Assembly (NCBI GenBank): GCA_963719035.1
Contig: CAVRAO010000012.1
Location: 224,001 to 288,000 of the forward strand
Length of the DNA: 64,000 nucleotides
Source: Methanobacteriota archaeon
Lineage (GTDB): Archaea; Halobacteriota; Bog-38; Methanoflorentales; Methanoflorentaceae
Direction of reading: 5' to 3'
This document shows, piece after piece, positions 50,319 to 58,669 of this stretch. Numbering within the stretch: the first letter of the stretch is position 1; each line of letters opens with the position of its first letter. The position numbers were made by a program, and so were the translations under genes. Below the pieces are notes generated by a model. That model did no database searches. It saw nothing but the letters and a program-made list of their open reading frames with translations, and was not told the origin of the DNA.

Positions 50319-51333
50319 ATGTGGCTTATTAGAGGTATGGATATGGTCGATCAGACTTTAAAGGCTGAACAGCAACGCAAAGCTGCGGAAGCACTGCACA
50401 GGCTCCGAAGCCAGGCAAGTACTCCATTGGGACCGAACGTTACAATCAAACCCTCTGGGTCGGTTGGAAGGATACCTTTAGAAATGGGTGAACTTGCGGC
50501 CGAACATTACCGTTCTGCTGAGGGCTACGATCCAAACTTCCTCGGCGCTGAACACCAGCTTGAACTTCCTAAACTGGCACCTGACCTCCAGCCCAAGGTG
50601 GCACAGCTCAAGAACGGAGGCGAAGTTCTCACTTACCATCACTTCTCGATTGTCATGAATGCCGAACGGCGACTCGCGTTTCATACCGCCGTAAATGTCG
50701 ATGGTCGGCAATTGGAGCACGTAGAGCGTGATCGTGATAAGTGGTACTTCGATCTGCGTCTTGATGAACGGCTCCAGGCGGGGCCAGACCTATACTCCAA
50801 CAATCCACTTGACTGTGGTCATCTGGTCCGTAGGCTCGATCCCTGTTGGGGATCAATAGCAGTTGCTGCGGGCGAAGACACCTTCCACTTTACGAACTGC
50901 TCACCCCAGCATTCTAAGCTCAATCAGCGTGATTGGCTTGAGATTGAAAGTTACGTCCTCAATACCGCAGACAACGCAGATGTACGTATCTCGGTGTTCA
51001 CAGGTCCCGTCTTCCGCGACGATGACATGCTCTATCGCGATGAATACCTGTTGCCTGCAGATTTTTGGAAGGTAGTAGCGTTCATCAATAAGAATGGCCA
51101 GCTTCGAGCTACTGCCTATGTGCGAACCCAGAAGAACTACCTTGAAAGTCTCAAGTTCTTCGATGACGAGTACCAAGACATGGCAGGTGCCAGTAGCACA
51201 GGTCGAAGCGCTCACAGGCCTATCTTTCGGGATACCGCAGGACGCTGACCCATTGACAAGGGTGGGGGTTAGCCGAGAAAGTCACAGACGCAATATCCGA
51301 CAAATTAGATCCGCGCACGATATCCTGTTGTGA
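50319..51333 (+). CDS. DNA/RNA non-specific endonuclease (NucA/EndoG His-Me finger), frameshifted near the C-terminus
   Basis: GYDPNFLG, YHHFSIVMN, LDCGHLVRRLDP (DRGH motif with R changed to C), TFHFTNCSPQH..LN, WLEIE, TGPVF, FWKV; tail WQVPVAQVEALTGLSF in the next frame. Confidence 0.88.
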
Positions 51334-51518: not shown

Positions 51519-52349
51519 TTATAAGATAGACATATCTCTCTGTGTAGGTTCGCTCTCTAGCTGAGGCACTTGGGTATACTTATCTTTCTTCAAATCGGCT
51601 ATTACCTTCGTCAACAGCTCTTTTCGGGAGAGCTTGTTCTGGGTCGCATTCATCGCTTTGACCAAATAATAGGTAAAGGCCCCATGCCATGTTCCATCAA
51701 TTTTTGCATCAGCGCTGGTCTGATCTGCCCTGCAACCGGCCCACAATATCTGATCAGTTACTCCGGATTCTAGCATTGCGCGATAGAATCCACGTGGACG
51801 CTTTCCATCGACTTTTTCGAAGGCAGCCAGCGATGGGGGAGGTAGATAACGTGGCTTACGATCCAATAGGAGATCAATTGCCTTTAGACCCGTCCCGCTA
51901 TGACAGGTATCGAGGAAAACCTCTAACGATACATTGCTGGGAAGCTGAACGAACAGGTCGTGCAGCTCATCATCTACAATTATATGTGCATGGTCCCACT
52001 CGCCGTCCTTTTCGGCTAGATCATTCGGGCAGAATGCCTCATCCGCTCTGTCAGGTTCATCTCCTTCTTTATCAGGTACCTGAGTGCCGTGACTCGACAT
52101 GCTAAGGACAAGAGATGCATATGTGCCTGCTTTTGCGCCAGCAACCATATCATTAAGATTTTTCATGATATTTGCCTTTGTGGCTTGACTGTCGGTCAAC
52201 TCAACGACATCCGCAGCGGTGTATCCCAGATACTTTGTCAGCGCTGATTTCATATCTTGAACATCATTCACACATCCCTGTAACGCGGCCGAGGGATAGT
52301 TCTGGTATTGATTTATTCCAACACAAAGCGCTCGTCTACCGTTTGGCAT
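51519..52349 (-). CDS. Caspase-like (C14, ortho/metacaspase) cysteine protease
   Basis: RALCVGINQY, LQGCVND, SSHGTQ (His), DTCHSG (Cys), GCRADQTSAD, GAFTYYL, QVPQL. Confidence 0.93.
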   Translation of the reverse strand: MPNGRRALCVGINQYQNYPSAALQGCVNDVQDMKSALTKYLGYTAADVVELTDSQATKANIMKNLNDMVAGAKAGTYASLVLSMSSHGTQVPDKEGDEPDRADEAFCPNDLAEKDGEWDHAHIIVDDELHDLFVQLPSNVSLEVFLDTCHSGTGLKAIDLLLDRKPRYLPPPSLAAFEKVDGKRPRGFYRAMLESGVTDQILWAGCRADQTSADAKIDGTWHGAFTYYLVKAMNATQNKLSRKELLTKVIADLKKDKYTQVPQLESEPTQRDMSIL

Positions 52350-52398: not shown

Positions 52399-53302
52399 TT
52401 ATTCCTTGAAATCGCCCAAGTTAATCCATTCTGCGTGAACAAGGGACCACCAATCGACGGCAAGCCCTTTTAAAACGTACTCATACGGAAGCCAGCCGTA
52501 CCCACCGTCGCCCCATTTGTCGCCCCAAGAGTTCCTGATTAGCAGCGCACCGGTCGTCTCCGTGTTGCAGGCGTTGTTGATCTTCATACCGTCATCATAG
52601 CCCACCGCGACGATGGCGTGGCCCCCCACCACCTGTTCTCTGGGACACGGCATGGGGATCTTTCCGTCGGCTTGTGCTTGTTTGATAGAGCTGTATACGG
52701 TAAAGCCGAACATCGCAGGGAGCTGTGTCGCTAAGGTCGTCTTGATACTTTCGAGCAGGACGTCCGCCGGCGTCGCAGGGGGGTCGAGACGGTAGTACCT
52801 TGATCGCATTATATTGCTGGCCAAAGGCGTAGAGGAAGGCAGGGGGTTCTACATCGAAATCAGGATCGTTATCCGTGTAGGGCCAGTACTCTTCGGGCGG
52901 AACGCCGAATAGGACGAGCGCTTTCATCGTTTCTCGCAGGTATCCACCGGTGTCCCCGGTCTCTTTCATAAGGTTTCTCGTCGCCTTGTAGAGAAAGAGA
53001 CGCGATGCGTCGATAAAAATGCCGTTCGCCTTGTTCTGGAAGTACTCAACGAGCCCAACGCCCGCATTGGCGGTGCACGAACCGAGCTGTCGTTGATTTT
53101 CAACGGGAGAGCACCATTGCCGCAAGTCGACCGTGGAAGGCAGAGCGGCTTTGGTCGATCTGAGTGCCCCGCCTTGCTTCAGGGTCTTATTGACTTCTGA
53201 CGTCTCGGGCGTATAATCGCGGAAATCGGGCAAGTCGCGACGCCATCCAAGACCATTGCCATCTATTGTGTTAGACAACATACTATTTTCCTCTTTTTTC
53301 AC
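52399..53302 (-). CDS. Papain-like C1A cysteine protease with one frameshift near 52810
   Basis: VDLRQWCSPVENQRQLGSCTANA, SRLFLY, GGHAIVAVGYDD, IRNSWGDKWGDGGYG; no signal peptide. Confidence 0.92.
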
Positions 53303-54423: not shown

Positions 54424-55446
54424 ATGGCTCACGACGTATTCATAAGCTACGCTGCAGAAGACCGATCAGCCGCAGAGGCGGCCCGCGCCGCCCTTGAGGC
54501 ACAAGGCGTGAGCTGTTGGATCGCTCCTCGTGACGTGCTTCCTGGCGAAGACGAGACCGAGTCAATTCTTGCCGCCATCGACGCGAGCGGCGTCGTTGTT
54601 CTTTGCCTTAGTGCGGCTGCCAACGCGTCAAAACTCGTTACCCAGCAGGCGGCCCGCGCTTTTAACAAGAAGATCCCGATCGTTCCGTTAAGGATTGAGG
54701 AAGTTGCGCCAAGTGACGCACTTAGGCTCTTCTTTGGCACGGGTGAGGTCGTTGATGCATATGTGCCGCCACTTGAGAGCAAGCTGCAACGGGTAGTAGA
54801 AATCGTCACTCTGCTCTTGAGGCAGCCGAGGCAGAAAAAACAGGAAGCGGTGTCTGACGTAGTCAGTGCAAGTTCGGCTGACGAAGAGCTGGCGTGGCTC
54901 GAACCGTGGGCCCTCGCAAAAGGGGGCAAGCTGCAGAAAACTGCTTCACCGGTGGCTGGAGAGGACAGGCCCACTCGGAGAAAAGATCAGTCTGGTGGGA
55001 AAAGATCTATAGCGCCTGTGTTTTTAGTTGCGGGCGTCTTGATAATCGGCATAGTCATTGCGGCCGCTCTGGCATCTAATGTATCTCCTTCCGAGCTTAT
55101 TGCTTCCTTTTTGAAACAGGCGAAGCAGCTGCAAGAGCAGATTGAAACGCCGTCCTCCACACCAACGTCAACGGCCAGTTTGACAGTGCTGTACTTTCAA
55201 AGACCAGACTGTTCCCACTGCGTAGAACTAGAGAACACAGCCAGCTTTCAGCAGCTTCAAAAGGAAGTAACCGTGCAATCAGTAAGGACCGATCAAAGCC
55301 CGGCGACGCTCACAAACCAGTATGGAGTGACCGAAGTCCCAACGCTCATCTTGCTAAACAACGGGAAAGAAGTTGGTCGATGGGTCGGTCCTACCGATGC
55401 TTCTGCTATCAACGTAAAATTAGACAGCGTGCGCGTAGCGGGTTAG
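54424..55446 (+). CDS. TIR (catalytic E to Q) - single TM - thioredoxin-like domain protein
   Basis: HDVFISYA, CWIAPRD, IVPLRIE; basic stretch then TM VFLVAGVLIIGIVIAAALA; C-terminal DCSHC and GVTEVPTLILL...GRWVG. Confidence 0.88.
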   Translation: MAHDVFISYAAEDRSAAEAARAALEAQGVSCWIAPRDVLPGEDETESILAAIDASGVVVLCLSAAANASKLVTQQAARAFNKKIPIVPLRIEEVAPSDALRLFFGTGEVVDAYVPPLESKLQRVVEIVTLLLRQPRQKKQEAVSDVVSASSADEELAWLEPWALAKGGKLQKTASPVAGEDRPTRRKDQSGGKRSIAPVFLVAGVLIIGIVIAAALASNVSPSELIASFLKQAKQLQEQIETPSSTPTSTASLTVLYFQRPDCSHCVELENTASFQQLQKEVTVQSVRTDQSPATLTNQYGVTEVPTLILLNNGKEVGRWVGPTDASAINVKLDSVRVAG

Positions 55447-55466
55447 GGTCATAGCATGAGGGCGAA

Positions 55467-55557
55467 GAGCTGTTGGATCGCTCCTTGTGATGTGCTTCCT
55501 GGAAAAGACGAGACTGAGTCAATTCTTGCCGCCATCGACGCGAGCAGCGTCGTTGTG
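55467..55557 (+). repeat. 90-bp orphan fragment of the TIR coding sequence
   Basis: Near-identical to 54510-54599 and 57961-58050. Confidence 0.9.
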
Positions 55558-55601
55558 TGACGTACGTTGTGAGTTAGTTTTAGGGAGGGTAGGGGGATAG
55601 G

Positions 55602-56102
55602 TTAGATGCTCGTGGCCAGCAAATAAAGCGCTACGAAAAGCAACAGGGTGTACGGAACGGCGAATAGTTGTGGCACGTACCGCTCTATACGCGTCAAGGG
55701 TCGGTAAAGCCGAGAGTCTTTTCCCTTTCCAAGAACCTCCCACTCACGCGCATAAAAAGGAAACGCAAGGTTCTTTTCGACTTCGAAGATCACCTTAAAC
55801 TTGCCCGAGCTCAGCTGGCCGTGCGAACGAATGGTTACAAACCACATATAGCAGAGGAGCACGCCTAACATAGCGACCACAAATAAAACAGTGCTCTGAA
55901 TGGCGGTCGCGGTCTTTAGTGATACGACCGCTGCAAGAAGCGCGAGCAGTCCAGAGAGCAGCGATATGTAGAACTTGTTGGCATCCGCTCGGCGGTCGCT
56001 CACCTTGTCCGCCAGCTGGACGTAAAGCTTGTACTGATCGAGCAGCATGCCGACATTCGGATCGTGCTTCTCTTCTACCTTTTCCGTCACGTGCAGCTCC
56101 AT
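55602..56102 (-). CDS. Small multi-TM membrane protein (SLATT-like / RipA-family octameric membrane protein type)
   Basis: LLDQYKLYV..ADKVSDRR..ANKFY, two TM helices, W...I.S...L.SGKFKVI..E, third hydrophobic helix. Confidence 0.65.
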   Translation of the reverse strand: MELHVTEKVEEKHDPNVGMLLDQYKLYVQLADKVSDRRADANKFYISLLSGLLALLAAVVSLKTATAIQSTVLFVVAMLGVLLCYMWFVTIRSHGQLSSGKFKVIFEVEKNLAFPFYAREWEVLGKGKDSRLYRPLTRIERYVPQLFAVPYTLLLFVALYLLATSI

Positions 56103-56312
56103 GCGTGTTCCTAATTTATATGCTCAACGTCATCAAGCCATCACTTGCTACTGATTTGAACTAGTGTGGTCTTTTGACGCACGTTACGATGCTAAATATA
56201 GTCAATATTGCCATTTTTTGTCAATTAAACGTCTCCAGGGTGTCCTTTTAAGGAAACAACGAAAGGTATTACTATTGCCACAGCCAATATTTATGTTAAA
56301 ATTTGTGGGAAC

Positions 56313-57782
56313 ATGGCTCGCGACGTCTTTATCAGCTATTCGTACGACGACAAAGTGATCGCCGACAAGGTTTGCAGCGCGCTTGAGGGCGCTGGTATAC
56401 TCTGCTGGATCGCGCCACGCGATGAGCGACCCGGAGAGACGTGGGCGAGCAAGATCGTTCGGGCAATTGATGAGAGCCGCATAATGGTCCTCGTTCTCTC
56501 TGCGAGCTCGAACAAATCCAAGGACTGCACCAAAGAGGTCGCCATCGCCACCAGCGATGAAAAACTCATGCCGGTCATTCCACTGCGCATCGATGAGGTC
56601 AGCCTCACAGGTGACCTGAAGTACTACCTCGCGGGGATGCACCGGCTGGACGCCCTGCCGCCGCCGATTGATAACCATCTTGAGCGGCTTGTCGTCGACG
56701 TGCGGGATCTTCTCAATTCGGTGTCGTTATCGGAGGCTCAGTTAGAAAGCCCGAAAACCGATGCAATAAGCGCCAAAGTGCGTGACATGGACCTTGAACG
56801 GACGCAAGAGTGGATGGAAAAGGCAGAGAAGCTACGCGAGCTCGACCTTGATTCAGAGGCGCTCACGTGCTACGACAAAGCGCTCGCAAGCAATTCCGAA
56901 AACGCACCTGCGTTGAACGCGAAGGGGCTTATCCTCACCAAGCTTGATCGTCACGAGGAGGCCCTTCAATGTTTTGAGCAGTCGACTGAGGCTGATCCCG
57001 CATCGTTCGAGGCGTGGAAGAATAAAGGGATATGTCTCCAGGAACTCGGTCATTCTCATGAGGCGCTGGAGTGTTACGACCGAGCCCTTGATATCGAGCC
57101 ACTCGACGCAGGAGCGAGAGGGTTGAAATGTTCTGCCCTCCTTGACCTCAACGATGATAAAGCAGCGCTTACGTGCTGCGAAGCGGCGACGAAGATCGAT
57201 CCGACAAGCTTTTCCCACTGGTTTTTCACAGGGGTGTGTCTTGCCAAGCTCGGTCGTCACCAAGAGTCCCTCGAGAGCCTTGATAAGGCGATTGCCCTCA
57301 ACCCTCAAAACGCTGACGCCCTGTATCACAGAGGTGACGTTCTCGCGAAATGTGGCCGTCTCAAAGAGGCGATCGAGTCGTATGATCGAGTACTTCGCAT
57401 TGACCCCGATCACGTACAAGCCTGGTTTAATAAAGGCGTATGCCTTGCGAGCTTTGGGCGGCACAGCGAGGCCATCGACTGTTACGCGAAAGTGCGCACG
57501 ATCGACCCAGCACACCCGGATTTGCAGCAGCAGCGCTCTGCCTCAGAAAAAGCACTTGGCTTTGCTACGTTGTTAGATCGGGCGACTATGCTCACCAGGG
57601 TCAACCGCCACCGCGAGGCCATCGAATGTTACGACAAGGTTTTAGCAAGCGACCCCTATAACGCAGACGCGTGGTACAACAGGGGGCTCTCCTTCGCAAG
57701 CCTCGGCAACGCGAAAGAGGCTGCACGATGTTTTGACCGGTCTTTAGAACTCGCCTCAAATCACGCGAAAGCCGGGGTTTAA
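56313..57782 (+). CDS. TIR-TPR protein with intact catalytic glutamate
   Basis: DVFISYS, CWIAPRD, SKDCTKEVAIA (E75), then roughly nine TPR repeats (AW.NKG..L..LG...EA..CYD.AL..DP). Confidence 0.93.
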   Translation: MARDVFISYSYDDKVIADKVCSALEGAGILCWIAPRDERPGETWASKIVRAIDESRIMVLVLSASSNKSKDCTKEVAIATSDEKLMPVIPLRIDEVSLTGDLKYYLAGMHRLDALPPPIDNHLERLVVDVRDLLNSVSLSEAQLESPKTDAISAKVRDMDLERTQEWMEKAEKLRELDLDSEALTCYDKALASNSENAPALNAKGLILTKLDRHEEALQCFEQSTEADPASFEAWKNKGICLQELGHSHEALECYDRALDIEPLDAGARGLKCSALLDLNDDKAALTCCEAATKIDPTSFSHWFFTGVCLAKLGRHQESLESLDKAIALNPQNADALYHRGDVLAKCGRLKEAIESYDRVLRIDPDHVQAWFNKGVCLASFGRHSEAIDCYAKVRTIDPAHPDLQQQRSASEKALGFATLLDRATMLTRVNRHREAIECYDKVLASDPYNADAWYNRGLSFASLGNAKEAARCFDRSLELASNHAKAGV

Positions 57783-57874
57783 GGCCCTGGATGTTTCAAA
57801 GATAGCCGTTGAAACTCGCACGAAGTCGCAAAAGCTAAGAAGTAGATTAAGCGCACGATCGAACGGATGCACTT

Positions 57875-58669
57875 ATGGCTCACGACGTATTCATAAGCTA
57901 CGCTGCAGAAGACCGATCAGCTGCAGAGGCGGCCCGCGCCGCCCTTGAGGCACAGGACGTGAGCTGTTGGATCGCTCCTCGTGACGTGCTTCCTGGCGAA
58001 GACGAGACCGAGTCAATTCTTGCCGCTATCGACGCGAGCAGCGTCGTTGTCGTTTGCCTGAGTTCGGCTGCCAACGCGTCAAAACTCGTTACCCAACAAG
58101 CGGCCCGCGCTTTTAACAAGAGGATCCCGATCGTTCCGTTAAGGGTTGAGGACGTGGGGCCAAGCGAAGCGCTCAAGCTATTCTTAGGTGCTCAAGAGCC
58201 GGTTGATGCTTATACCCCTCCGCTCGAATCCCCTCTTGCCGCACTTGGTGTGGTTATTGGCTCGCTTTTGGCACAAACTGCAGCACCGGCCGCCGGAATA
58301 ATGTCTCCTCCCGGACTTCCCTACGAGGAGGGGACTCCTGCAGTACGCAAGCGACGAGGCGGCGCGCCGCCTCGTCGTGCCGGGGGGAAAGTGCTCATCA
58401 TCGCTGCCCTCGTTGCCCTTGCGATTATCGTTATCGCCGCGATATTCTTTTTGCTCCCGCAATCTCAGGTTCAGCTCATTGCAGTCTCGTCTGAGACTCC
58501 TGGGGAGTCTCCAAGCCCCACGGAAAAGCCTACCATCCTCCCTACGCAAGAGCCCTCTTTGGTCCCTACGCCCACGACCCCTACACCCACGACCCCTACG
58601 CCCACGACCCCTACGCCCACGACCCCTACACCCACGACCCCTACGCTCCCCCCCTACGGCGCTTGGTGA
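57875..58669 (+). CDS. TIR (catalytic E to Q) - single TM - Pro/Thr-rich stalk protein
   Basis: TIR nearly identical to that of 54424-55446; KRR..RR..K then TM VLIIAALVALAIIVIAAIFFLL; (PTPTT)n tail. Confidence 0.85.
   Translation: MAHDVFISYAAEDRSAAEAARAALEAQDVSCWIAPRDVLPGEDETESILAAIDASSVVVVCLSSAANASKLVTQQAARAFNKRIPIVPLRVEDVGPSEALKLFLGAQEPVDAYTPPLESPLAALGVVIGSLLAQTAAPAAGIMSPPGLPYEEGTPAVRKRRGGAPPRRAGGKVLIIAALVALAIIVIAAIFFLLPQSQVQLIAVSSETPGESPSPTEKPTILPTQEPSLVPTPTTPTPTTPTPTTPTPTTPTPTTPTLPPYGAW
58565..58645. repeat. 15-bp tandem repeat CCTACRCCCACGACC x5.4 (PTPTT)
   Basis: Directly visible in the sequence. Confidence 0.95.

Follow-up and report, generated by a model that had tools for sequence, protein, structure and literature searches.

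A candidate Thoeris-like TIR signalling locus with putatively non-catalytic, membrane-anchored TIR paralogues in an uncultured archaeon

In the present study, a cluster of TIR genes was analysed in a window of 64,000 nucleotides from the genome of an uncultured archaeon, and all coordinates given here are positions in that window (Table 1). Two genes, termed A and C, encode a TIR domain with glutamine at position 75 (Gln-TIR) followed by a transmembrane (TM) helix, and they flank a gene for a TIR-TPR protein, which is separated from C by 92 nt on the same strand. Beside the TIR-TPR gene, and between the two flanking genes, lie a minus-strand gene for a small membrane protein (8xMP) and the relic of a third Gln-TIR gene (77% identity, one TGA), both absent from the preliminary description of this locus, in which the archaeal nature of the host and the large family of Glu-bearing TIR-TM-ectodomain proteins had also been missed; the relic was also observed in the metagenome contig L026. 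The Pfam profile TIR_2 (PF13676, cut-off 28 bits) matched A, TIR-TPR and C with 69.6, 77.6 and 68.6 bits, respectively, and the Pfam search of these three proteins revealed TIR with TPR or TIR with thioredoxin only, with no NB-ARC and no LRR domain. With regard to the described Thoeris effector families (ThsA-ThsL), a PADLOC search of the locus returned no match. The phosphoesterase gene downstream of C is a possible accessory gene of the module, of uncertain membership, and is kept downstream of the C orthologue in L025 and absent from that place in G010, the genome of a second species. The wider neighbourhood is a mixed island that includes Endonuclease_NS, caspase and C1 peptidase genes.

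Table 1. Features of the TIR locus, with positions in the 64,000-nucleotide window
Feature	Position	Strand	Description
Gene A, 340 aa	54424..55446	+	Gln75 TIR (residues 1-135), linker, TM helix, predicted outer thioredoxin domain
Gene A TM helix	residues 199-217, nt 55018-55074	+	single helix
Gene A thioredoxin domain with CSHC motif	residues 251-333		Pfam Thioredoxin (PF00085), 34.5 bits, cut-off 23.5
Codon 75 of A	54646..54648	+	CAG = Gln, at the catalytic-Glu position
Third Gln-TIR gene, relic (105 nt)	55456..55560	+	residues about 26-60, TGA at end; between A and the 8xMP gene
8xMP/RipA-family small membrane protein, 166 aa	55602..56102	-	three hydrophobic helices; PF24838
Intergenic region, 210 nt, divergent	56103..56312	.	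separates the 8xMP and TIR-TPR genes
TIR-TPR, 489 aa	56313..57782	+	TIR residues 1-140, then about 7 TPR repeats
Gene C, 264 aa	57875..58669	+	Gln75 TIR (residues 1-134), TM helix, 73-residue Pro/Thr-rich predicted outer tail
Gene C TM helix	residues 173-191, nt 58391-58447	+	single helix
Codon 75 of C	58097..58099	+	CAA = Gln
Membrane-spanning calcineurin-like phosphoesterase, 438 aa	58951..60267	+	Pfam Metallophos, E 3.3e-08

First, the glutamine at position 75 proved to be a stable trait of one clade. The preliminary description had assigned Gln75 to both TM proteins and Glu75 to TIR-TPR, and the codons bear this out (CAG and CAA versus GAG at 56535); its ungapped alignment was recovered with MAFFT, LSA(A/S)ANASKLVTQQAARA versus LSASSNKSKDCTKEVAIA, and the reported loss of the Trp of GETW is visible at codon 44, which is GAG in A, TGG in TIR-TPR and GAG in C. 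The claim that the Gln does not reflect a single read error also held, and chance is likewise insufficient to explain it, as Q75 and E44 are shared by the 12 clade members without exception; position 54648 is A in three sediment metagenomes, where the codon becomes CAA and the Gln is kept. Column 75 is Q in the 12 close relatives and E in all homologues outside the clade (110/110), column 44 is E in the 12 clade members and W, Y or F in 107 of the 110 others, and a 13th clade member (P0132, 61% identity) likewise carries Q75. The Glu of column 75 is invariant in a 53-row alignment, and among 167 TIR stretches from 123 further cluster representatives E was found in 161, the sole Q belonging to a clade member. 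The column coincides with the canonical catalytic Glu, that is, the Glu of the S-x-W-x-x-E-L box in oyster TIR-STING (6wt6) and TLR6/TLR2, and Gln75 is located within helix 70-81 of the AF2 model of C. The hallmark of catalytic TIR domains, the alpha-C Glu, is thus present in TIR-TPR, together with Trp44, His108 and His120, and replaced in A and C.

Second, this replacement does not stand alone. In the alignment with Glu-bearing homologues, about ten near-invariant residues besides Glu75 are gone from the Gln clade, in which W/Y44, R74, V76, H108, W109, L110, H120, R30, C21 and Y102 have been replaced. Because Glu75 and these other near-invariant residues have been lost together, the flanking TIR domains of A and C are, on their sequences, very likely non-catalytic. 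The residues associated with the fold and the BB loop are kept (D4, F6, S8, Y9, CWIAPRD31-37, G41, S63, S69, D111, A112 and P115-116), and D37 and G41 of the BB loop occur unchanged in both the Gln clade and TIR-TPR, with an equivalence to plant TIRs given by alignment position only. In the AF2 model of C, pLDDT exceeds 90 throughout residues 1-130, and Foldseek searches with this model recovered the TIR fold, with the TIR domains of SARM1, SPARTA, MAL, MyD88 and PdTIR at probability 1.00 (SARM1 TIR, TM 0.74-0.78; SPARTA TIR, rmsd 2.3-2.5). The Gln-TIR domain is still under purifying selection, with dN/dS over residues 1-134, against the orthologue from the other species, of 0.099 for C and 0.18 for A. 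In the tree rooted on TIR-TPR, the Gln clade is monophyletic (support 0.976), has a stem of 0.30 versus a median internal branch of 0.059, and nests among Glu forms. Since TIR-TM-ectodomain proteins with intact Glu make up a large family, the Gln form is, as placed by this phylogeny, derived, and A and C are lineage-specific paralogues from that Glu-bearing family. Members of the latter ('CWIAPRD' TIR_2, from bacteria and archaea) resemble the Gln clade in the N-terminal TIR (41-55% identity), the single helix and the variable outer domain, but they keep E75, W/Y44, H108, W109 and H120, all of which the Gln clade has lost; one of them, in a sister species, has an 8xMP gene immediately after it.

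Two further roles for the altered domain were weighed against these losses. Glu-to-Gln is a conservative change used by experimenters to trap substrate in TIRs, and a dead TIR with its fold and BB loop kept might bind NAD+ or a TIR-made nucleotide without cleavage, setting a threshold or relaying the signal at the membrane. The pocket-candidate residues W/Y44, H108, W109, H120 and R74 have also been lost, which argues against a preserved nucleotide pocket in the Gln-TIRs, and we consider such a ligand-binding role quite improbable. That A and C are still enzymes is hard to credit: another acidic residue, e.g. from the E42-D43-E44 cluster newly formed around the BB loop, might replace Glu75 or serve a different reaction, the clade having gained D43 and E44 beside E42, and catalytic-residue migration in pseudoenzymes has been described (PMC10211241), but the joint loss of about eleven near-invariant positions speaks against it.

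Third, the Gln-TIR proteins are predicted to hold the TIR inside the cell and the C-terminal part outside, as the preliminary description had proposed. This N-in, tail-out topology is supported by the positive-inside rule, with 4-7 Lys and Arg residues on the N-terminal side of the helix and 0-2 on the C-terminal side in each of 11 clade members (for A, 5 and 1, respectively). Toll-like receptors nucleate their adaptors, and A and C might similarly, in line with the preliminary description, be outside-in receptors, whose ectodomains would sense an envelope or surface cue and whose clustered dead TIRs would nucleate TIR-TPR assembly. The thioredoxin fold of A with its CSHC motif, the topology common to the clade, the conserved D37 and G41, and the varied outer domains (thioredoxin, DUF4352 and others) carried on a nearly invariant TIR, as would be expected of a receptor family, are consistent with this idea. 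However, C, the copy most tightly linked to TIR-TPR, bears only its Pro/Thr-rich tail, with pLDDT of about 50 in the AF2 model and no folded ectodomain, as does its orthologue in the second species (Pro/Thr/Ser-rich, no predicted fold), and the TPR array already supplies a cytoplasmic sensor; we therefore regard outside-in signalling as rather unlikely. The receptor-like architecture is not special to A and C, since a hydrophobic helix likewise follows the TIR in 80 of the 109 Glu-bearing homologues. The response to cell-surface cues suggested earlier for both proteins is plausible for the thioredoxin-bearing A only, because C is without a folded ectodomain. Likewise, the earlier comparison with Toll-like receptors of inverted topology stands insofar as A and C are membrane-anchored with the TIR inside, and is otherwise a loose functional analogy: both groups are single-pass proteins with a cytoplasmic TIR and, in our model, a scaffold role, but the TIR of A and C is N-terminal and in the opposite orientation, an LRR ectodomain is lacking, and no shared descent of the two architectures is evident. 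The proposed tie between Glu loss and a TLR-type scaffold failed, as TLR TIRs themselves retain Glu at column 75, where A and C carry Gln; Glu loss is thus not what makes a TLR a scaffold.

Fourth, the Gln-TIR genes are linked to the TIR-TPR gene beyond this genome. The order 8xMP (minus strand), TIR-TPR (plus) and Gln-TIR (plus) was found again in G010, the full four-gene order was found again in L026, the divergent 8xMP and TIR-TPR layout is present in G010, L026 and G018, and metagenome contigs span both the 8xMP/TIR-TPR and the TIR-TPR/C junctions. The contexts compared come from a single genus, of which they represent two or three related lineages; the clade members that carry DUF4352 or further ectodomains are on short contigs and fall outside the comparison. 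In G010, a 1-nt deletion that does not lie in a homopolymer disrupts the TIR-TPR frame downstream of about residue 91, and the adjacent Gln-TIR is intact, so the Gln-TIR may persist there without a working TIR-TPR; alternatively, the deletion may have arisen in the assembly, or very recently in the genome. This case speaks for an independent function, in which the dead TIR would serve in the cytoplasm to oligomerise or anchor envelope proteins, namely an extracytoplasmic thioredoxin and surface tails, and would lie near TIR-TPR through common descent or island clustering. Paralogues often remain clustered, and the mixed content of the surrounding island fits such an origin. However, the gene order and a short same-strand gap recur in every context recovered, and the TIR surface is strongly conserved (dN/dS about 0.1), which argues for a specific partner; an independent function appears unlikely.

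The small membrane protein encoded beside TIR-TPR matched the 8xMP profile with E 7.5e-40 and 136.3 bits (cut-off 30), covering 135 of 136 profile positions, and the name given in the Atlas and at NCBI is 'RipA family octameric membrane protein'. Among archaeal loci, counted as all those fetched with E of at most 1e-25, a TIR_2 or ThsB_TIR gene lies within 1.5 kb of 8xMP in 9 of 9, and an annotated TIR gene adjoins the homologue in 8 of 12 plasmid records examined (Proteobacteria, Cyanobacteria, Clostridium and haloarchaea); G010 contains a second 8xMP and TIR pair. The partner TIRs vary (TPR, TM-ectodomain, TrmB or TIR only), and such variation around one constant membrane protein is in keeping with Thoeris systems, in which the effector is fixed and the TIR sensor varies. 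The family namesake, RipA, is a membrane protein of Francisella that is not known to be linked to TIR proteins, and no solved-structure relative of 8xMP was found by sequence search. From its sequence and gene context, the 8xMP protein is probably an effector. A dead TIR partner is not general in these loci, since the multi-TIR loci of Halorubrum and Clostridium perfringens keep the Glu in both full-length TIRs, and in Novosphingobium the adjacent TIR keeps it, the second TIR gene there being a 142-residue fragment without the motif.

The Thoeris systems, especially type V (TIR protein ThsB with ThsF), resemble the present locus in that a Glu-bearing TIR gene adjoins a small three-helix membrane protein, in their defence-island-like surroundings, and in combining varied TIR architectures with a fixed effector family. 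ThsF, a 3-TM protein, has been modelled in the form of an oligomeric ring (10.64898/2025.12.03.692087). The effector families, putative in the present locus, differ, being 8xMP/RipA (PF24838) here and DUF2270 in type V, and no profile similarity was detected between them (hhalign probability 0.3). A survey of Thoeris tabulates 29 putative types; in the main-text sections consulted the 8xMP name does not occur, and the Thoeris descriptions consulted hold no counterpart of the extra dead TIRs. For the latter, the closest analogue is the plant sensor/executor pair RRS1/RPS4, in which the sensor TIR is without the catalytic Glu and further features of the active site, the executor keeps them, and the dead RRS1 TIR restrains the live RPS4 TIR through TIR-TIR contact (PMC13732033). 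As described for the plant pair, the catalytic Glu is present in only one of the two kinds of TIR that neighbouring genes encode here; in contrast, NB-ARC and LRR domains are missing from the archaeal proteins, whose dead partner is anchored in the membrane of an archaeal host, and the BB-loop Asp, lost in RRS1-type sensors, is kept in the Gln-TIRs. The hetero-oligomer of the two TIRs that marks such plant pairs is putative for the archaeal pair.

Herein, we propose that the locus is a Thoeris-like archaeal TIR signalling module in which the dead Gln-TIRs act on TIR-TPR through TIR-TIR contact, and we assign this reading a probability of about 0.5. Because 8xMP homologues recurrently adjoin TIR genes, the core has the appearance of a Thoeris-type pair of catalytic TIR-TPR and membrane effector. 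TIR-TPR, with Glu75 intact, would serve as sensor and signal synthase, and the divergently transcribed 8xMP/RipA-family protein would be the membrane effector answering its product. A and C would hold their catalytically dead TIRs at the inner membrane face by one helix each, might keep TIR-TPR at the membrane next to the effector through TIR-TIR contact, and might restrain its self-assembly until a trigger arrives, as the Glu-less RRS1 sensor TIR does with RPS4. The loss of the catalytic residue set, the purifying selection, the topology, the conserved gene order and the recurrent adjacency of 8xMP and TIR genes are observed and support this model; the effector role of 8xMP, the binding of Gln-TIR to TIR-TPR and the sign of the regulation, positive or negative, are what we infer. 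Taken in this way, the locus points to a defence module that operates by signalling and includes TIR partners of its own without enzymatic activity. Tentatively, and with the odds against it, a fuller picture may be drawn of an archaeal heteromeric TIR complex, in which pseudo-TIR membrane receptors, in some cases bearing redox-active or Ig-like domains on the outside, would gate the catalytic TIR-TPR, whose nucleotide would open an octameric RipA-family pore. If true, this would be a prokaryotic counterpart both of the plant sensor/executor TIR pairs and of scaffold signalling in the style of TLRs, with 8xMP defining a so far uncharacterised Thoeris type that is widespread in bacteria and archaea.

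The stretch 54424-58669 comprises four genes and one relic. Two genes encoding membrane-anchored TIR proteins with Gln at residue 75 (A and C, hereafter Gln-TIRs) flank a gene for a TIR-TPR protein with Glu at this residue and an 8xMP gene on the opposite strand. The relic of a third Gln-TIR gene, located between gene A and the 3' terminus of 8xMP, shows 81-82% nucleotide identity to A and C and was found again in a metagenome contig (L026). Around the locus, the frame of the C1 peptidase is intact in the genome of a sister species of the same genus (G010; L024 16492-17385), and the phosphoesterase keeps its position in a second metagenome contig (L025) but not in G010. A single 221-nt contig of RNA run X20 covers 56313-56533, which does not demonstrate transcription of the locus, and the promoter and terminator scan used a sigma-70 model that is not meaningful for an archaeal host.

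Features of the TIR locus and its surroundings (window coordinates, unless residues are given)
Feature	Position	Strand	Description
DNA/RNA non-specific endonuclease	50319-51248		upstream of A
Caspase-domain protein	51519-52349	-	about 2 kb upstream of A
Papain-family C1 peptidase	52399-53302	-	two overlapping frames in the window
Gene A	54424-55446	+	340 aa; N-terminal TIR_2, 69.6 bits (Pfam, cut-off 28)
Thioredoxin domain of A	residues 251-333		CSHC motif (Pfam)
Relic of third Gln-TIR gene	55456-55560	+	105 nt; residues about 26-60; TGA at end
8xMP gene	55602-56102	-	166 aa; PF24838 "octameric membrane protein family (8xMP)", 136.3 bits (cut-off 30)
TIR-TPR gene	56313-57782	+	489 aa; N-terminal TIR_2, 77.6 bits (cut-off 28); about seven TPR repeats (Pfam)
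Gene C	57875-58669	+	264 aa; N-terminal TIR_2, 68.6 bits (Pfam, cut-off 28)
Calcineurin-like phosphoesterase with internal membrane helices	58951-60267	+	downstream of gene C

As far as alignment can tell, residue 75 is the catalytic position. Column 75 shows no variation in the 53-row alignment, is Glu in all 110 homologues outside the clade of A, C and their close relatives (the Gln clade), and, when aligned, coincides with the Glu in the S-x-W-x-x-E-L box of oyster TIR-STING (6wt6), TLR6 and TLR2. In the AlphaFold2 model of C, with pLDDT above 90 for residues 1-130, Gln75 lies within helix 70-81, and the Foldseek matches of this model include the TIR domains of SARM1 (TM 0.74-0.78), SPARTA (rmsd 2.3-2.5), MAL, MyD88 and PdTIR. 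The codons assigned in the preliminary description are correct (CAG at 54646 in A, GAG at 56535 in TIR-TPR and CAA at 58097 in C), as is the loss of the Trp in GETW, codon 44 being GAG in A, TGG in TIR-TPR and GAG in C. The view that the Gln is not a read error was also upheld, as three sediment metagenomes read 54648 as A, and the resulting CAA still encodes Gln.

The distribution of Glu and Gln was surveyed in 122 proteins, namely the three TIR proteins of the window and 119 homologues of 187-595 aa (the best 120 of 1363 matches, one row being C). Gln75 was observed in 12 proteins, including A and C, and Glu75 in 110. The same 12 proteins, all at least 69% identical to A, are the only ones among the 122 with Glu44 (motif GEDET), and Trp, Tyr or Phe is present at this position in 107/110 Glu75 homologues. 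A search of the whole library gave 19,575 matches at E <= 0.001, and the best 150 of these contributed 123 further cluster representatives, which contain 167 TIR stretches; column 75 was Glu in 161, Asp in 3, and Tyr, Ala and Gln in one each, the lone Gln among the stretches from these best 150 matches being that of P0132, which belongs to the clade (61% identity). A column-by-column comparison revealed that R74, V76, H108, W109, L110, H120, R30, C21 and Y102 are also replaced in the Gln clade, H120 being present in 110/110 non-clade homologues, and that D4, F6, S8, Y9, the CWIAPRD block 31-37, G41, S63, S69, D111, A112 and P115-116 are kept; TIR-TPR retains W44, E75, H108 and H120. A FastTree tree was built from 124 TIR domains without P0015 (which lacks residues 1-37) and rooted on TIR-TPR by our choice; in this tree, the 12 Gln sequences form one clade with support of 0.976, a stem of 0.30 compared with a median internal branch of 0.059, and the Glu-bearing P0016 as sister. 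Because Gln75 is a trait of one clade and is accompanied by wider residue loss and this tree position, the Gln form is a derived and remodelled offshoot of a catalytic family. Two clade peptides searched against 185,579 species genomes matched the G010 record alone, in a search that members with altered peptides, e.g. P0132, would escape. Among the 24 genomes of the class in the collection, the query used for the class found Gln-TIRs in two, G010 and the genome carrying the window (G000; 2.19 Mb, 13 contigs), and the named Glu-bearing homologues are mostly bacterial, e.g. Dehalococcoidia, Anaerolineae and Blastocatellia. In addition, a tandem TIR-TIR protein of a sister species (P0127; L009/L019, G007 contig 32) has a first domain with Asp75 and Arg44 and a second one with the canonical Glu and Tyr, and this fused pair is a further hint of a lineage experimenting with unequal TIR pairs.

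Compared with the G010 orthologue (Nei-Gojobori, residues 1-134), dN/dS was 0.099 for C and 0.18 for A, with dS of about 1.0-1.2, and the putatively dead TIR domain is maintained. Over their first 240 nt, A and C show 93-98% identity, which declines to 58% by nt 301; this points to homogenisation of the 5' ends by gene conversion or recent duplication. Metagenome contigs end exactly at this 5' repeat (54424-54700 and 57875-58150). The proposed topology, with the TIR domain inside and the C-terminal tail outside, gained support, because no signal peptide precedes the TIR domain and, in each of the 11 full-length clade members, the 15 residues preceding the helix contain 4-7 Lys+Arg, compared with 0-2 on its other side. 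The outer part is a thioredoxin in A, P0006 and P0015, DUF4352 in P0009 and P0011, other domains in P0005, P0014 and P0132, and a Pro/Thr-rich tail alone in C, P0010 and P0012. Numerous outer domains occur in the Glu-bearing homologues (FGE-sulfatase and PsbP, among others), and in 80/109 of these homologues the TIR domain is followed by a hydrophobic 19-mer with a mean Kyte-Doolittle value of 2.0 or higher; the predicted TIR-TM-outer part architecture is not peculiar to the Gln clade.

The linkage of the Gln-TIRs to the neighbouring genes was observed beyond the window. In G010, 8xMP(-), TIR-TPR(+) and a C-type Gln-TIR(+) occur in the same order and spacing. In contig L026, an A-type Gln-TIR and the relic are followed by 8xMP(-), an uninterrupted TIR-TPR and the beginning of a second Gln-TIR; in L025, probably the continuation of L026, the membrane phosphoesterase seen in the window comes after the C orthologue. 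In three further metagenomes, contigs span the junction of 8xMP with TIR-TPR, that of TIR-TPR with C, or both. Since these metagenomes represent the same or a very close species, these contigs confirm the assembly and do not add independent lineages. In G010, a 1-nt deletion that does not lie in a homopolymer splits TIR-TPR into two frames (L024 7748-9291), reflecting either a genuine pseudogene or an error in the assembly, and the Gln-TIR is intact, which speaks against strict dependence. Elsewhere, both TIRs around 8xMP keep Glu in Halorubrum and in Clostridium perfringens; in Novosphingobium, the TIR adjoining 8xMP keeps Glu and the second TIR gene encodes a fragment of 142 residues without such a motif. 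As full-length TIRs at other multi-TIR 8xMP loci keep Glu, the seemingly dead partner is a local invention. Two other TIR genes of G000 were observed. A TIR-NACHT/AAA protein of 598 aa (L005, contig 12, 118983-122324), about 160 kb upstream on the same contig, is the fifth TIR gene of this 2.2-Mb archaeal genome. At L021 (contig 6, 116304-119702), a 409-aa membrane protein with a weak, sub-threshold SLATT_1 match (E 1.3e-4) precedes a TIR-TM protein that bears Glu and a PsbP-like outer domain, and this may be a second TIR-effector pair.

The 8xMP gene, which the preliminary description overlooked, is a recurrent neighbour of TIR genes. A PF24838 search across 301 genomes of the phylum placed 16 of them over the cut-off, and a TIR gene was located within 1.5 kb of 8xMP in 9/9 fetched archaeal loci with E <= 1e-25; the neighbours are of the TIR_2 type in L029, L031, L032 and L034, and of the ThsB_TIR type in L028, L030, L033, L035 and L036, with ORFs of 138-320 residues, most about 140. 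A tenth match, the second 8xMP pair in G010, lies 322 nt from another TIR gene, and a strong match on contig 18 of the archaeal genome G006 stands outside these counts. The partner architecture varies, with TIR-TPR in the window, TIR-TrmB in the archaeal genome G018 and TIR plus a small domain in G010, and in G006 a Glu-bearing TIR-TM-ectodomain gene is followed directly by 8xMP. Weak 8xMP-like loci (L037-L057, E above 1e-11), with no TIR neighbour detected by two home-made HMMs, were set aside as other families. On plasmids, tblastn revealed 8xMP homologues in 25 records, and in 8/12 of those opened the homologue adjoins an annotated TIR gene (Haematospirillum, Polaromonas, Halorubrum, Synechococcus, Haladaptatus, Natronosalvus, Novosphingobium and C. 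perfringens). An NB-ARC protein abuts it in Rhizobium, nothing informative is annotated beside it in Leptolyngbya, Streptomyces and Acaryochloris, and the plasmid surroundings include restriction, toxin-antitoxin, PIN, HEPN and caspase genes. The C. perfringens plasmid NZ_CP065633.1 (L081, 11406-16801) carries in order a caspase family protein, a TIR, the 8xMP homologue and a TIR, bringing together 8xMP and the partners found in a caspase-type Thoeris system. Because TIR genes are few in these genomes (five in G000), the 8xMP-TIR adjacency is far beyond chance. PADLOC and NCBIfam gave no match for the 8xMP protein, a PDB sequence search gave nothing meaningful, and no fusion of 8xMP to other domains was found among proteins of 292-2000 aa, which is weak evidence. 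In NCBI and Atlas, the family goes under the name "RipA family octameric membrane protein". RipA is a Francisella inner-membrane protein that is not known to be linked to TIR. No description of the 8xMP-TIR pairing was found in the main texts of the literature searched. Taken together, the gene neighbourhoods point to the 8xMP/RipA family as an effector family for TIR signalling in bacteria and archaea.

Thoeris systems pair a constant small membrane protein with TIR partners that vary, and the 8xMP loci have this layout too. According to the main-text sections of 10.64898/2025.12.03.692087, the type V Thoeris effector ThsF is a three-helix membrane protein modelled as a ring; 8xMP is unnamed in these sections, and 29 putative types are placed in the supplementary tables. 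Profile comparison of 8xMP with DUF2270 (hhalign, 12 8xMP versus 12 haloarchaeal DUF2270 sequences) gave a probability of 0.3, i.e. no profile similarity, and the 8xMP profile weakly touches two DUF2270 genes (E 2.7e-4 and 6.4e-4). The preliminary description had compared the Gln-TIRs to Toll-like receptors. This analogy is only a loose one; the better frame would be a Thoeris-like TIR and membrane-effector module with lineage-specific pseudo-TIR partners. The underlying observation was confirmed and strengthened, and its interpretation is partly supported.

Herein, we propose a mechanism to which we assign an even probability (about 0.5). First, TIR-TPR would sense a cytoplasmic trigger through the TPR array, self-assemble and make an NAD-derived signal. 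Second, an 8xMP ring in the membrane would answer this signal and compromise the membrane. Third, the Gln-TIRs would be co-expressed from the same strand as TIR-TPR and would contact it by TIR-TIR surfaces at the membrane, with no catalytic pocket to offer and the BB-loop region retained. From adjacency and conservation we infer that the Gln-TIRs may bind or regulate TIR-TPR; complex prediction (TIR-TPR 1-140 with Gln-TIR 1-135, 53-row alignments) gave ipSAE 0.00 in two runs with controls not folded, and is uninformative in either direction. We lean towards a role in restraint and tethering because of the analogy with RRS1/RPS4, in which a sensor TIR without the catalytic Glu restrains the executor (PMC13732033). 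For A, nucleation of TIR-TPR, as originally suggested, is equally compatible with the data, and the outer thioredoxin could report the redox state.

TIR domains are known to act as enzymes in bacteria, plants and SARM1, or as scaffolds in the animal TLR pathways. To our knowledge, heteromeric TIR regulation has been described so far mainly for plant paired NLRs, and the main texts of the literature searched gave no description of a live TIR paired, in a prokaryote, with a membrane-anchored TIR that is catalytically dead. Here, a receptor-shaped catalytic TIR family of a prokaryotic lineage appears to have given rise to a conserved, non-catalytic offshoot that is still linked to a catalytic TIR, and the locus is a compact, naturally occurring system for testing heteromeric TIR regulation.
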